From Candidatus Izemoplasmatales bacterium (lineage in GTDB: Bacteria > Bacillota_I > Bacilli_A > Izemoplasmatales > Hujiaoplasmataceae): a stretch of 25,200 bases of DNA. A program made the position numbers. Positions within the stretch are counted from its first letter, which is position 1. Each line of letters begins with the position of its first letter. Below are positions 6,001 through 12,000 of this stretch, piece after piece. Location of the stretch: positions 6,431 through 31,630 of the forward strand of contig JBFXGX010000014.1 in the NCBI GenBank assembly GCA_050177605.1, given 5' to 3'.

Positions 6001-9000
6001 TCGTGAAGCGTCCCTAAAAAATATGAACATGCGTTATCAAAACGGTGGTACTCGTGTTCAAGTGGGGATGGGTACTTGTGGAATCGCCGCAGGTGCTAGA
6101 CCAGTTTTAAATAAGTTTATTGAAGAAATCAACTTAAGACATTTAAAAAATGTAACGGTGACACAAGTAGGTTGCATGGGTGAATGTGCCTTCGAACCAG
6201 TTGTGGAAATCGTCGATGAGGACGGCTCTTCGACAATTTATGCGAACGTATGCGAACGTATGGTTGCGGAAATTGTAGAAGAACATATTATGGAAGGTAA
6301 TAAATTAGAACGTTATTTATTATCTGGAGTTAAGAGGTAAATATTATGTTAGAAAGAATGCATATTTTAATTTGCGGTGGCACGGGTTGTCTTAGTTCGC
6401 ATTCCAAAAACATCCGTGATGAATTTAATGAAGTACTCGCAAAATACGAAATGAGCGAAGAAGTCAAAATGGTGATGACAGGATGCTTCGGCCTTTGTGA
6501 AAAAGGTCCAGTTGTTGTTGTATATCCTGATGAAGTATTCTACTCTCATGTTAGTATTGATGACGTTGATGAAATTGTAAGAGAACATGTCGTAAAAGGA
6601 CGTGTTGTTGAAAGATTATTAGTCAAAGATCCAATTGATAAAAAGAAAATTAAAAACATGAGTGAACTCAAGTTCTACTCAAAACAAAAACGTATTGCCC
6701 TAAGAAACTGCGGTAATATCAATCCTTTAGAAATCAAAGAATATATTGCAAAAGATGGATATTTAGCTTTAGGTAAAGTCTTAACAGAAATGACACCAGA
6801 ACAAACCATCGCGGAAATGAAAAAATCAGGATTACGTGGTAGAGGTGGCGGTGGATTCCCTACTGGTTTAAAATGGGAATTTGCTGCAGCGTCAAAAGAC
6901 ACACAAAAATATGTCATCTGTAACGCCGATGAAGGTGACCCAGGTGCATTTATGGACCGTGCTGTTTTAGAAGGTGATCCTCATAGCGTATTAGAAGCAA
7001 TGGCAATTTGTGGTTATGCCATTGGTGCTAACCAAGGATACATTTATGTAAGAGCTGAATACCCAGTTGCAGTAGAACGTCTTCATATAGCAATTGGTCA
7101 AGCAAGAGAATATAACTTACTTGGTAACAAGATTTTTGGTACAGATTTTAATTTTGATATCGACATTCGTCTTGGGGCTGGAGCGTTCGTTTGTGGTGAA
7201 GAAACTGCATTAATCGCTTCTATCGAAGGCGAAAGAGGTATGCCTAGAAATAAACCACCTTTCCCAGCAGTGAAAGGGTTATGGGGCCATCCTACAAATG
7301 TAAATAACGTAGAAACTTTTGCAAATGTTCCAGTGATTTACTTAAAAGGTGCAGATTGGTTTAAATCCATTGGTACTGAAAAATCAAGTGGAACAAAAGT
7401 ATTCGCACTTGGAGGAAAAATCCAAAATACAGGATTACTAGAAGTTCCTATGGGAACAACCCTTCGCGAAGTTATTTTCGATGTAGGTGGGGGTATTCCT
7501 AACAAAAGAGAATTTAAAGCTGTTCAAACCGGTGGACCTTCTGGTGGATGTATTACTAAAGAATCATTAGATACGCCAATCGATTTTGATAACTTAGTCA
7601 AACTAGGTTCAATGATGGGGTCTGGTGGAATGATTGTCATGGATGAAGACAACTGTATGGTTGACGTGGCGCGTTTCTATCTTGACTTTACCGTTGATGA
7701 ATCATGTGGTAAATGTACACCATGTCGTGAAGGTACAAGAAGAATGTTAGACATTCTTAATCGTATCTGCGAAGGAAAAGGAACACTGGAAGATTTAGAT
7801 ACATTAGAGTCTTTAGGAAATATGATTAAAGATACTTCTTTATGTGGACTTGGTCAAACCGCTCCAAACCCTGTTTTATCAACTTTAAAACACTTTAGAG
7901 ATGAATATATTGCCCATGTTGTCGATAAAGTATGTCCAGCCGGCGTTTGTGCAAACTTAACAAACTATGTTGTGATGGATAATTGTATCGGTTGTACGAA
8001 ATGTGCTCGTAACTGTCCAGTGGATGCAATCACTGGTTCAGTGAAGACAAAACATTTCATTGATTTAGATAAATGTATCCGTTGTGGTGCTTGTAAGAAG
8101 GCTTGCCCAGTCAATGCAATCACGTCAAAACCTGAAGGATGGGAGGGAGTCCAACATGTCTAAACTTGTTAATTTAACCGTTGATGGTAAAAATGTTGAA
8201 GTACCTGCAGATTTTACAGTATTAAGAGCCGCAGAAGTTGCTGGTGTGAAAGTTCCTCGCCTTTGTTTCCTAGAAGGAATTCATGAAGAAGCAAACTGTC
8301 GTGTTTGTGTTGTAAAAATCGACGGAATGAAAGGATTAAAAACTTCTTGTTCTACAAAAGTACAAGAAGGTATGGTTGTACATACCAATACAAAAGAAGT
8401 GTACGACGCTGTTAGTAACAATTTAGAGTTATTAGCAGGGAACCATAAATTTGAATGTTGGAAATGTTCTCGTGAAAATAGTTGTGAATTCTTAGATTTA
8501 CTACGTCGTTTCAACGTAGAAAATGACTATTCCAATGGGAAAGTCTATTTACAAAAAGATATTCGTGTCAATGAATCTTCTGAAGCAATGGTCCTTGACT
8601 CATCCAAATGTGTTCTATGTGGAAGATGTGTTAGTGCGTGTCAAAAACAATCAGGACTTGGAATCTTAAACTTCAATCATCGTGGATCGAAAACTTATGT
8701 GGGTCCTGCTTTATTCCATAATCTAGAAGACGCTGGATGTATCTACTGCGGTAAATGTATTCAAGCTTGTCCTACCGGCGCAATCCGTGAAAAAGATGAA
8801 ACAAAAACCATGGACCGTGTTTTAAGAGATACTTCAAAAACAGTTGTTGTTCAAGTAGCACCATCTGTCCGTGCTGCTTTAGGTGAAGAATTTGGATACA
8901 AAATTGGAACCAACGTTGAAGGACAAATGTTTGCGGCCTTAAAAGAACTTGGTGTAAAAGAAATCATCGACACCAACTTCACCGCTGACTTAACTATTTT

Positions 9001-12000
9001 AGAAGAAGGAACAGAATTCATCGACCGTGTTCAAAACGGTGGTGTACTACCAATGTTTACTTCTTGTTCACCTGGTTGGGTGAATTACTTAGAATTATAT
9101 TATCCTGAATATATTGAAAACTTATCAAGTTGTAAATCTCCTCAACAAATGGCTGGCGCATTAATCAAAACTTATTACGCAGAAAAATTAGGAAAAGATC
9201 CTAAAGATATCTATAGTGTATCGATTATGCCTTGTGTAGCGAAAAAAGCAGAAGCTGCTAGACCAGAAATGGGAAGAGATGGATACAAAGATGTTGATTT
9301 AGTATTAACGACAAGAGAATTTGCTCGTTTAATTAGACATCGTGGCATTCCATTTAGAGATTTAGAACCAATCAAACCTTTCGGTATGTTAGCTGAATAC
9401 ACAGGTGCTGGTACGATTTTTGGAGCTACTGGTGGTGTAATGGAAGCAGCGCTTCGTACCGTAACTGAAATCTTAGAAGGAAAATCTACGCCAGTAGAAT
9501 TCTTAGATGTCCGTGGACTTGACAACATCAAAGAAGCAACTTATAACGTTGCAGGAATTGAAGTGAATGTCGCTGTTGTCCATGGCGGAAAAGCCATTGG
9601 TGATTTCCTTGAAATGATGAAAACATCTAAAAAACAATACCATTTCGTTGAATTTATGGGTTGTACAGGTGGATGTATTAATGGTGGTGGACAACCAATC
9701 GTTCCTGCAGAAATTCAAGACAAAGTTGATGTTCGTGCAAGACGTGCAAAAGTGTTATACTCCATTGATGAAGCTTCTACATTTAGAAAATCTCACGAAA
9801 GTGAAGCAGTTAAAAAATTATATGAAGAGTTCTTAGGTAAACCTAATTCTCATAAATCTCATGAATTACTTCATACGCATTACCACAAGAGAACAAGTTA
9901 CGAGGTGTAAATAAAATGAAGAAATTATTATCAGTTTTCGCAGTATTATTACTCGCTTTTCTATTTGTAGGATGTACCGAAGAAACGACAGTTTCAACAG
10001 ATCCGGTCGTATATTCTGTTATCGCGCCAAATGGATCTCCTGCGATTGCGCAAATGTATATGCAACAGAATACAGCACATTACGCAGTTGATGTTGTAAG
10101 TGGACCCGATCCTCTTTTAGCGGCATTCGGTTCAGCTTCACATGATTTCATTTTTGCGCCAACCAATTTAGGAGCGAAATTATATACAGCAAATCAAAGT
10201 TATATCTTTATCGCAGCTGTGACTTTTGGAAACTACTATTTAGTTACAAGTACAGAGTCTACATTTGATTTAGCAAGTCTTGCAGGAAAAGAAATCGTCG
10301 TGTTTGGTCAAAACCAAACATCCGATATCGTTTTAAGATATGTTTTATCTGAAAATGATATTACTGCGACTTATTCATATGTCGCAGATGTCGCAACAGC
10401 AGTATCTACTTGGGTCATGGATAATTCTAAAATCGTGATGGTTGCGGAACCTTCCTTAAGTGTACTTCTTGCATCCCATCCTGATTTAGATGTGATTGAT
10501 TTACAAACTGCTTACGAAGATATCACAGGTAGTAATTCTTACCCACAAGCCGGCGTGTTTGCGAAAGCCACACTTTCAAATGAGGCGATTGATCAATTCT
10601 TAACGGATCTAGAAGCTTCGATTGATGCGGTTAATTCAAATGTTGCAGACTCCGCAACACTTGGTGTTGACCTAGGTTTTGGTTTCCCATACGCTGTACT
10701 AGTGAACGCAATTCCGAATAGTCATCTTGATTTTCAAGGTGCACTTGAGGTAAAATCTAGTTTAGAAGCATATTTCAGTATTATCTTAGATTTAAATCCA
10801 GTACTGATTGGTAATGCTTTACCAGTAGACGACTTTTACTATCAACCAGAATAAGTAGGTGAAGGATTTGAAAAAGAACTTGATTTTAACGCTCTCCATA
10901 ATAACCATTTTTTTGGTATGGGTCGTTATGTTTCAGGTCGTTTCAAATCCTTTATTACTTCCTAGCCCGGTAGAAGCTCTAAAAGCTTTCTATCATATAT
11001 TTATTCAGTTAACATCCTTAGAAATGATTCTATATACTTTCTTAAGATTATTTCTTGCGATGGCGCTTGCGCTCATCGTAGGATTATTACTGGGTGTTAT
11101 CGCGGGATTTAATGAAACCTTTGCGTTGTTTATTCGTCCGATTGTGACCATTTTTAGAACCGTTCCAGTGATTTCAATTGTCGTTATCTTGTTAATTATC
11201 TTTGGGTTTACACTCACACCTTATTTGATTACCTTTTTAATGATTTTTCCGTTATCGTATCAAGCGGTATATGGTGGAATCAAAGCGATTGATAAGGAAC
11301 TTATAGATGTTTACTTATTAGAAGATAATCATTTCTTCCGGGGAATGAAATATTGTTATTTGCCACTGATACAAGGTGGTATAAAAACAGCATTATTACA
11401 GTCCGCAGGTCTAGGAATTAAAGTACTTGTGATGGCAGAATACTTATCTCAAACAAAGAAATCAATTGGAAATGCAATTTACTTAGCAAAAGCTAATCTT
11501 CAGTTTGATCAAGTATTTGCATGGACTATTTTACTTATATTGCTGGCAATCGGGATTGAGATTCTCATTGAAAAATATGGAATCATCAAGAAAAAAGTCG
11601 AAAAAACGATAACAAATAATTCCTTAAAAGATTGACTTTTATATGATTTTTCGGTAAGATATTAATGACATAAGGGAGTAGCTGGCGCAATCTTTACTAT
11701 CGCGCGGTTAAATCAACAAGCGTGGCAGAAATGCCTGGTTTAATTGTTAGCAGCAAGACTTATGCACCAGTCAAGTGCATAAGTCTTATTTTTTTTTAGG
11801 AGGACTAGAATGGATTCATACAAAAAGACAGTTAGTCAAGCTTTAGAAGAACAAAATGTAATACTTAAAAAAGGATTATCTTCACAGGAAGTTCTTGCCA
11901 GACAAGAAAAATTTGGCAAAAACGAATTGAGAGAAAAAAAGAAAAAGACATTCTTCCAAATGTTTTTAGATCAATTTAAGGATTTTCTTGTAATTATCCT

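Follow-up and report, generated by a model that had tools for sequence, protein, structure and literature searches.

A lipoprotein and permease behind hydA as a candidate salvage importer for the 2Fe cofactor of [FeFe]-hydrogenases lacking HydE, HydF and HydG

How does an [FeFe]-hydrogenase obtain the 2Fe half of its H-cluster in a cell that lacks the maturases? According to the accessible text of one review, HydE, HydF and HydG are found in all organisms having an [FeFe]-hydrogenase (PMC6212873), a statement that is contradicted by the genome samples described here. In the available part of another paper (PMC11216029), maturation without HydEFG is stated to be an open question, and an alternative pathway is argued for in maturase-less archaea and protists. 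A concrete candidate for bacteria is provided by the window (the whole 25,200-nt stretch of DNA analysed here, from the order Izemoplasmatales), in which the hydCDBA operon ends with a lipoprotein binding protein and, as its last gene, a permease. It is well supported that this system serves H-cluster supply, and on balance the best explanation of it is salvage import of the 2Fe half in finished or almost finished form.

The first-pass annotation placed the lipoprotein and the permease directly behind hydA, and the coordinates bear this out (Table 1): the gap between hydA and the lipoprotein gene is 5 nt, that between the lipoprotein and permease genes is 4 nt, and no strong terminator-like site was detected from hydA to the permease gene by a terminator scan. 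The hydA product scores above the NF040763 cut-off, its H-cluster motifs are intact in translation, and HydB and HydC partners accompany it, as in NADH-dependent group A [FeFe]-hydrogenases. At the operon head, a terminator-like hairpin (3010-3036) lies just ahead of the promoter-like site; sites of this kind are not more frequent in the consensus scan than in shuffles, so that only its position speaks for it. The 3' end of the operon is probably marked by the Mn-riboswitch-like leader with its terminator, and no family reached its gathering score in an Rfam scan of the whole window. The DRTGG/HATPase/PHP cassette lies inside the hydrogenase operon and does not belong to the transporter; it was not seen in 19 metagenome loci of relatives.

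Table 1. Features of the hydrogenase operon and its flanks (positions within the window)
Feature	Position	Strand	Evidence
Promoter-like site (extended -10), operon head	3043..3071	+	consensus scan, 10/12 matches with TG
hydC, NuoE-like 2Fe-2S subunit	3111..3590	+	PF01257, E 1e-44
Five-gene cassette DRTGG / HATPase / DRTGG / PHP / HATPase	3592..5975	+	Pfam matches, several sub-cut-off
hydD, thioredoxin-like 2Fe-2S ferredoxin	5972..6340	+	PF01257
hydB, NuoF-like FMN/NADH subunit	6346..8163	+	PF01512, PF10589
hydA, catalytic subunit, NADH-dependent (bifurcating-type) [FeFe]-hydrogenase	8156..9910	+	NF040763 785 bits (cut-off 765); TIGR02512 over cut-off
Lipoprotein substrate-binding protein, 312 aa, NitT/TauT-fold family, candidate [2Fe] cofactor receptor	9916..10854	+	
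ABC permease, 258 aa, BPD_transp_1, TauC/SsuC/SaoP-like	10859..11635	+	PF00528, E 4e-12, 46.7 bits (cut-off 26.4)
Mn-riboswitch-like leader of next gene (P-type ATPase)	11661..11811	+	RF00080 21.4 bits (gathering 45), E 3.6e-4
Terminator in Mn-riboswitch-like leader	11755-11787		hairpin plus T run

The pair comprises the exported, lipid-anchored type II binding protein and the BPD_transp_1 permease of a binding-protein-dependent ABC importer. The binding protein carries a signal peptide and a lipoprotein cysteine, Cys20, which is kept in 83% of the family alignment (A4), and its predicted structure (pLDDT 93) has the type II periplasmic-binding fold. The closest structure is PDB 3HN0 (Z 34.1, rmsd 2.1 over 272 residues; next match only 25.1), which also matches the family profile (E 1e-43). 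This protein, BDI_1369 of Parabacteroides distasonis, is a structural genomics target labelled 'ABC transporter' and 'nitrate transport protein'; it is the one solved structure of the family, and the entry titles give neither ligand nor function. At 50% identity the family forms at least 2103 clusters (E up to 1e-10, a count that may take in paralogues), and it has motifs of its own (WG.LY, TPD, EP and C-terminal GG.LPD..FY) that are missing from neighbouring paralogues. PqqT and thiamine-related proteins are among the cofactor binders of this fold class, and the fold is equally near to sulfonate, bicarbonate and nitrate binders (Z 23-25 each). In particular, the periplasmic PQQ-binding protein PqqT (9B1U, 9B1V, 9OOZ; Z 24-25, rmsd 3.1), a redox-cofactor binder with 14-15% identity to the protein studied here, is tied with SsuA in structural match; therefore, this likeness is no pointer to the ligand.

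Fold and permease/ATPase class are shared with the NitT/TauT-family systems SsuABC, TauABC, NrtABCD and SaoXPA, but the equivalog scores lie far below the cut-offs. The permease reaches 70, 46 and 32 bits against NCBIfam cut-offs of 295, 342 and 347 for the TauABC/SsuABC/SaoXPA equivalogs, and the binding proteins of relatives score 59-79 against 163.5 for TIGR01728; identity with TauABC, SsuABC or SaoXPA was rejected, as permease and relatives' binding proteins fall below every NCBIfam cut-off. An MqnA/MqnD identity was likewise rejected: the binding protein scores 23.6 bits against PF02621 (gathering 26), and it is a lipoprotein with a permease partner, instead of standing in a cytoplasmic, permease-free context.

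It had been noted that no ATPase gene is linked to the transporter. This holds inside the order, where none was found in the transporter loci (many with short flanks), none follows the permease in this genome's operon, and none of the 22 best-scoring ATPases of this genome (assembly 89% complete) falls in the clade of the dedicated ATPase. Beyond the order it does not hold: 64 of 80 distant loci have a linked ATPase, and 68 have the permease cluster. The coupling-loop region of the permease is unlike that of its ATPase-linked relatives. The recurrent neighbours in the 80 distant loci are permease, ATPase, Crp, hyd genes, receptor and TM1266.

The binding protein is immediately 3' of hydA in 32 of 55 close-relative genomes, and hydA lies upstream of it in 10 of 19 metagenome loci. 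The earlier count of hydA within 6 kb in 54 of 80 loci was not reproduced; in another set of 80 loci, all more distant, only 8 have hydA within 8 kb, and nearby hyd genes and TM1266 are both lacking in 47 of 66 distant loci. Nor is the claimed absence of hydEFG near the transporter general, as hydG shares the locus in L092, L126, L130 and G487.

As expected of a salvage system, the importer is enriched in genomes that have HydA but no maturation genes. This was seen in four samples, more weakly in Clostridia, with the reservation that the genomes are kin and mostly MAGs, so that the counts cannot be treated as independent trials; PF02906, which takes in sensory and group B types, served to define HydA in three samples, and TIGR02512 did so in Clostridia. 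In the order (158 genomes), the binding protein was found in 100 of 109 HydA+/HydG-, 5 of 31 HydA+/HydG+ and 5 of 18 HydA- genomes. The near-exclusion of transporter and HydG reported earlier thus reappeared on re-running the same genomes (105 of 127 HydG- genomes, previously 104, vs 5 of 31), and so did its persistence within genus g20 (1/10 HydG+ vs 3/3 HydG-) and genus g13 (0/1 vs 9/9). The closed genome G028 indeed lacks both HydA and the transporter. Transporter carriers without HydA are incomplete genomes, as had been stated, but number five rather than two, all incomplete or fragmented (69-91% complete).

In the rest of the phylum, the corresponding counts are 72/74, 2/7 and 2/154, with G219 unscored and two weak matches (G189 and G254, E about 1e-13) dropped as paralogues; with them, the HydA- count is 4/154, and without the two families of small genomes that supply 112 of these 154 genomes it is 2/42. 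Two HydA- genomes at least 99% complete, G268 and G328, have a binding-protein match (1e-36 to 1e-38). In Bacteroidales, they are 8/10, 1/78 and 0/32, after removal of the seed G394 and 11 weaker matches; one of the eight positives (G480) had supplied a sequence to the query alignment. Six of the 11 are long ORFs (about 500-640 aa), of which four were inspected, all without a permease, and three were scanned and proved to be DUF1858/DUF2249 fusions, two with a ferredoxin domain; counting all six gives 10/10 and 5/78. In Clostridia (seed G397 and unscored G604 removed), they are 16/30, 13/80 and 0/13; G526 was added on inspection (TM1266, binding protein, permease, ATPase), the score alone giving 15/30. 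Another 35 Clostridia have weak matches only; 20 of these, drawn from both HydG classes, were inspected, and in none of them were the family motifs or TM1266 present. HydG-/transporter+ and HydG+ genomes do not differ in how well the H-cluster motifs of HydA are conserved.

Besides this distribution, three new lines tie the transporter to cofactor supply: an operator box, TM1266 and a TonB-dependent receptor. The Crp-type gene and palindrome divergent from hydE-G-F in this genome, reported by the first-pass annotation, are real; the gene gives Crp-family matches and has an exact GTAACnnnnGTTAC site, and its product is a candidate HcpR2 regulator. The motif is identical to that of the HcpR2 regulon, which likewise has a Crp/Fnr-type regulator and whose published targets, in the accessible text, are hcp genes (PMC1274295); unlike there, the box here stands before hydEGF or the transporter, and a BLAST search of this genome with an Hcp protein found nothing. 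Immediately ahead of hydE, an exact GTAAC-N4-GTTAC is present in this genome and in 19 of 20 HydG+ genomes (20/21), and it also precedes the binding-protein gene in 11 of 23 loci not behind hydA vs 0 of 32 behind hydA (background, 8 of 1420 windows). TM1266, a maturase-operon gene (TIGR03959 over cut-off in 14/14 tested), lies within 2.6 kb of the binding-protein gene, often ahead of it, in 13 of 66 distant loci vs 0 of 60 hydA-centred control regions. The shared box and the TM1266 linkage suggest that the importer is co-regulated with the maturase genes. Finally, a single clade of TonB-dependent receptors is represented in 6 of 8 transporter+ Bacteroidales tested vs 0 of 5 HydG+/transporter- controls, and in three loci the receptor is followed by hydG; the receptors score 96-120 bits against a B12-receptor cut-off of 600. 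The uptake reading of H-cluster supply is thus supported by an exclusion that recurs in the rest of the phylum, in Bacteroidales and, more weakly, in Clostridia, and by operator, TM1266 and receptor.

The HydE/HydF/HydG system would serve the same end and shares with the importer the operator box and TM1266; it differs in being biosynthetic and cytoplasmic, and its distribution is nearly complementary. HydF was over its cut-off in none of 10 HydG-/transporter+ genomes tested, 7 of them closed, and HydE appears to be absent from such genomes, HydE-like cross-hits of the HydG model, an indirect sign, being confined to HydG+ genomes; therefore, the cargo must need no known maturase. This genome is among the five HydG+ genomes of the order with both systems, as had been noted. 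Because it is the sole hydG carrier among 71 in its family, its hydEGF was probably gained laterally and the importer kept; contamination was rejected as the source, since the contig holds the genome's only pyrG, fba and rpoE and has a GC content of 0.345 (genome, 0.344). The importer is not the only route: it is absent from 14 of 30 maturase-less Clostridia, and no NMT1, TauT or SsuA annotation came up when a published archaeal neighbour table was searched by text. It is also missing from 2 of 10 HydA+/HydG- Bacteroidales, and 13 of 80 HydG+ Clostridia have both systems.

The following mechanism is proposed. Housekeeping Fe-S assembly, as is established, builds the [4Fe-4S] cubane of HydA. 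The lipoprotein would catch [Fe2(adt)(CO)4(CN)2]2- or a close relative, finished or nearly finished, released by maturase-bearing neighbours, so that the cargo would be the 2Fe subcluster itself; in Bacteroidales, the linked receptor would first take the complex across the outer membrane. Permease and ATPase, the architecture of which is evident, would then bring it into the cytoplasm, with the ATPase in this order unaccounted for and presumably borrowed. Apo-HydA could accept the complex without HydE, HydF and HydG, as shown for the synthetic complex in other hosts. Either synthesis or uptake would be under a single regulator, which in this phylum would be an HcpR2-type Crp protein and in other groups probably TM1266. 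As stated in the accessible text of PMC6243476, apo-HydA becomes active in living cells that have no maturases once synthetic [2Fe]adt is supplied, by an entry route that is unknown and for which the authors suggest transporters. A literature search, with most subscription papers and bioRxiv supplements outside its reach, found neither a paper proposing cofactor import nor a natural extracellular pool or source of the free 2Fe complex. The accessible texts of PMC8397711, PMC11129491, PMC11238397, PMC11170127, PMC12578642, PMC7039931 and PMC10434189 give no H2 measurement for a strain known to be maturase-less.

The evidence from distribution, regulon and receptor would fit equally well if a smaller precursor were brought in for HydEFG-independent assembly inside the cell, be it a mononuclear Fe(CO)x(CN) thiolate, the dithiomethylamine bridge or some other donor of ligands. 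The alternative pathway argued for in archaea and protists (PMC11216029, available part) also favours such a precursor, which is possible but clearly the less probable cargo: new enzymes would be required, given the missing HydF and apparently absent HydE, and no candidate enzyme recurs among the genes linked to the transporter in the 80 distant loci. It is unlikely that the importer carries a general nutrient co-regulated with the hydrogenase (an iron chelate, haem or a sulfur compound), or recaptures cofactor that the cell itself has leaked, in either case without taking the place of the maturases. The receptor scores best, though below cut-off, against haem and haemoglobin receptor families, permease and ATPase are similar to TauC/SsuC/SaoP types, and the transporter accompanies hydG in some genomes, even in a single locus; however, iron or sulfur supply should go with the maturases, contrary to the Bacteroidales counts (1/78 HydG+ vs 8/10 HydG-), and the predicted cleft motifs show no obvious conserved set of Cys, His or Tyr residues that could bind a metal directly. 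It is very improbable that the fold is catalytic here and acts on the cell surface to make or alter part of the cofactor, which is then imported. In favour of this, the enzymes MqnA, MqnD, Thi5 and DszB have the same fold (Z 17-23), the PF02621 match is weak but present, and one relative is a cytoplasmic fusion that carries ferredoxin, DUF1858 and DUF2249 domains; against this stand the lipoprotein signal, the permease partner, usually an ATPase, and the variability of E/Q178, the only possible catalytic residue. Lineage history, with an unrelated importer hitch-hiking behind hydA in one clade that happened to lose the maturases, could draw on the old downstream synteny and on the fact that 30 of the 31 HydG+ genomes of the order fall in one family, but is hardly credible and already largely refuted, as the pattern stands within genera and families, is seen again in Bacteroidales and Clostridia, and has two distinct regulatory links in its support.

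If salvage of the 2Fe half is correct, an organometallic carbonyl-cyanide cofactor would be shared between species, the H2 output of auxotrophs would depend on other community members, and maturase-less isolates might behave otherwise in pure culture. Predictions of H2 from hydA counts (gut, rumen, digester, sediment) would then hang on few producers, and a natural uptake module would be available for whole-cell semisynthetic hydrogenase work of the kind described in the accessible text of PMC6243476. Even a smaller precursor would point to a new maturation route. Tentatively, and with somewhat less than an even chance of being right, the [2Fe] subcluster may, like vitamin B12, be a micronutrient that is traded, with whole groups of anaerobes (most members of the phylum that have a hydrogenase, and a minority of Bacteroidales and Clostridia) being H-cluster auxotrophs that scavenge the intact complex from maturase-bearing neighbours by TonB receptor plus ABC importer or by a hydrogenase-linked ECF S component. 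Cobalamin salvage proceeds through BtuB and BtuFCD or ECF-type uptake, is co-regulated with biosynthetic genes and is common in non-producers. The logic would be alike (TonB receptor, binding protein, permease and ATPase, co-regulation, frequency in non-producers), but the binding-protein fold and permease class are different, and here the cargo would be a carbonyl-cyanide complex of iron. As a second, exclusive replacement of the maturases, the ECF S component is unsupported, being present genome-wide in 5/5 HydG+ controls as well as in 3/5 further HydG- genomes. Beside the hyd operon, it was found in 5 of 17 HydG-/transporter- genomes, from which same five its profile was built, vs 1 of 43 HydG+ and 0 of 13 transporter+ regions.

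The operon in the window, whose architecture is observed directly, comprises hydC, a five-gene DRTGG/HATPase/PHP cassette, hydD, hydB and hydA, followed by genes for a 312-aa lipoprotein (the binding protein, 5 nt behind hydA) and a 258-aa permease (4 nt further on). HydA scores above the cut-off of the NCBIfam NADH-dependent [FeFe]-hydrogenase model. Source-named homologues belong to Izemoplasmatales and related wall-less Bacilli. The cassette is without the sensory hydrogenase gene found in similar cassettes (L201, L214, L222) and is missing from the 19 metagenome loci compared. 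Elsewhere in the source genome, G000, a second hydC-hydB-hydA set is truncated at a contig end, and two more hydrogenase-domain genes flank a small gene.

Four genome sets were scored for the binding protein, for HydA and for HydG (TIGR03955 cut-off). In the source genome's own order (all 158 genomes), the binding protein was directly observed in 100/109 HydA+/HydG-, 5/31 HydA+/HydG+ and 5/18 HydA- genomes; the nine HydA+/HydG- genomes in which it was not found are 51-91% complete. The corresponding figures are 72/74, 2/7 and 2/154 for 235 genomes from the rest of the phylum (the phylum sample), 8/10, 1/78 and 0/32 for 120 Bacteroidales, and 16/30, 13/80 and 0/13 for 123 Clostridia. HydA and the binding protein occur in the very same 14 of the 22 genomes of family f4 of the phylum sample. 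As related genomes are not independent, no p-values are attached to these counts. The first-pass annotation had proposed that transporter and maturases nearly exclude each other; this pattern is real, and its evidential weight comes from its recurrence in three phyla and inside two genera, g13 and g20.

Loss of HydG and HydF was likewise observed directly. HydF was above cut-off in none of the ten HydG-/transporter+ genomes tested, seven of which are single-contig, and HydG-model cross-hits at 1e-16 to 1e-25 (here falling in hydE), an indirect guide to HydE, occur only in HydG+ genomes. HydA motifs are intact in the 53 HydA stretches scored from HydG-/transporter+ genomes and likewise in 43 from HydG+ genomes; dashes in this scoring come mainly from cut loci. 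Thus, a hydrogenase needing the 2Fe unit is retained without the known route to build it. G000, which holds both transporter and hydEGF, is an exception to the pattern that it revealed. Its hydE-hydG-hydF operon, divergent from a Crp-family gene, lies on a different contig from the window, one that also bears single-copy core genes. Since G000 is the sole hydG+ genome among the 71 of its family and its HydG shares no more than 53% identity with those of the 20 order loci fetched, the operon was likely gained laterally.

Transporter and maturases also share regulatory elements. The palindrome GTAAC-N4-GTTAC, the published HcpR2 signal (PMC1274295), stands exactly and just 5' of the maturase operon in 19/20 fetched HydG+ genomes of the order, and in G000; the background is 8/1420 windows. 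Of 58 transporter loci of the phylum checked, 55 had sufficient flank: the box is absent from the 32 in which the binding protein lies directly 3' of hydA, and among the other 23 it is exact in 11 and present with one mismatch in 3 more. No hcp was found in G000 despite its HcpR2-type box; judging from these sites, a nitrosative-stress-type regulator has apparently been re-used for H-cluster supply in the order. A second shared element is the maturase-operon gene TM1266 (TIGR03959 above cut-off in 14/14 tested), located within 2.6 kb of the binding-protein gene in 13/66 more remote transporter loci and 5' of it in 5/11 Clostridia-sample loci plus G526 and G530. All 60 hydA-centred regions lack TM1266, and neither it nor a hyd gene was seen in 47 of the 66 remote loci. 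At L081 and L082, where hyd genes are likewise missing, the transporter lies behind a divergent Crp gene and a CoA-dehydratase-activase-type gene of 1357 aa.

An adjacent ABC ATPase is found in 64/80 remote loci. The window itself is a weak spot here: none of the 22 best-scoring ATPases of G000 falls within the transporter-linked ATPase clade (support 0.973), and the coupling-loop region of the window permease is unlike that of ATPase-linked relatives; the window transporter might use a shared ATPase or one encoded on a missing contig. In Bacteroidota, a TonB-dependent receptor gene is divergent from the transporter operon in 4/10 named loci and in G400, G412 and G487, lies away from it in G480, G482 and G494, and was not found in G447, G509 or any of five HydG+/transporter- controls; three loci have the order TM1266, receptor, hydG. 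Dedicated energised outer-membrane receptors are an established class for scarce or bulky solutes, and such a solute is therefore implied.

That the transporter is an H-cluster supply system is well supported by these genomic comparisons, its ligand being a candidate. With modest confidence, we favour import of the [2Fe]adt complex or a close 2Fe relative, which would be supplied by neighbouring cells. Synthetic [2Fe]adt added to living Synechocystis cells without maturases activates apo-HydA, by an entry route that the published work leaves unexplained (PMC6243476). It is rather unlikely that a smaller precursor is taken up for a HydEFG-independent pathway. An alternative maturation pathway has been proposed for archaea, where full maturase sets occur in 5/130 genomes (PMC11216029); in that paper, 'import' and 'scaveng' are absent from the main text, and NMT1, TauT and SsuA from one supplement, so the binding-protein family may not explain archaea. 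Import of a general nutrient, or recycling, is improbable, and all remaining explanations together carry very little weight. The machinery is of an already known kind; a literature search found no proposal of H-cluster uptake, and the cargo and the implied cofactor auxotrophy appear undescribed.

The binding protein has no Pfam or NCBIfam family above cut-off. Its predicted structure (pLDDT 93) best matches PDB 3HN0 (Z 34.1), a structural-genomics entry that genuinely belongs to the family (E 1e-43), followed by a tie at Z 23-25 among SsuA, PqqT, CmpA and MqnD. The family numbers 3334 clusters at E <= 0.001 and 2103 at E <= 1e-10, and look-alikes include Bacillota, Bacteroidota and Spirochaetota. 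Most of the conserved columns consist of Gly, Pro, Asn, Asp, Tyr or Gln (G40, P82, N84, G105, T135, D137, E/Q178, P179, Q211 and a C-terminal GG.LPD..FY); besides the lipid anchor, no Cys/His/Met column exceeds ~50%. Judged by secondary-structure order, these motifs would line the predicted cleft, and the modelled pocket does not name a particular ligand. The G526 protein matches profile positions 159-307 ahead of 29-160, which suggests circular permutation, and the 611-aa P0121, with binding-protein-type domains in both halves, is probably a tandem form.

Features and their coordinates (L, fetched loci; C, contigs of G000)
Feature	Location	Remarks
DRTGG/HATPase/PHP cassette	window 3592-5975	
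Mn (yybP-ykoY) riboswitch-like leader with terminator	window 11661-11811	3' of permease, before P-type ATPase; below Rfam gathering score
hydE-hydG-hydF and Crp gene of G000	L050:7936-12329	
HcpR2-type box	L050:11648-11661 (C13); also L300-L319	5' of hydEGF
Further hydrogenase genes of G000	C4:1-2028; C21:19345-23667	
Transporter behind activase-type gene	L081:3177-7247; L082	
TonB-dependent receptor clade tracking transporter in Bacteroidales	L126:5056-7482; L130:1768-4164; L135:3065-5488; L118:2430-4646	TM1266 5', hydG sometimes 3'
ECF S-component subfamily (PF12822)	L215:3832-4344; L218:4549-5061; L220:2542-3054; L227:8985-9518; L234:9311-9799; L297:1492-2031	directly beside hydrogenase/maturase genes, often behind TM1266
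Binding protein of G526	L223:4960-5991	
Permease-ATPase fusions	L200:3173-4588; L204:6996-8432	
(Ferredoxin)-DUF1858-DUF2249 fusion	L206:1814-3514; L207:8234-10126; L208:7852-9747	cytoplasmic; with related binding-protein domain

An ECF S-component gene adjoins the hydrogenase operon in both maturase-less exceptions of the phylum sample (G253, G354) and in three Clostridia (G573, G600, G622), and TM1266 lies 5' of such a gene in four genomes. The same subfamily occurs in 5/5 HydG+ controls, once 21 nt 3' of hydF and once 4 nt 3' of hydA; it is hydrogenase-linked but not exclusive to HydG- genomes, and is possibly a second importer for the same cargo. Permease and ATPase are fused in two Bacteroidales. 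Finally, the (ferredoxin)-DUF1858-DUF2249 fusion may, speculatively, bind a metal-nitrosyl or Fe-S species; at L206, its gene is flanked by those for a Crp-type regulator and a hybrid-cluster protein.
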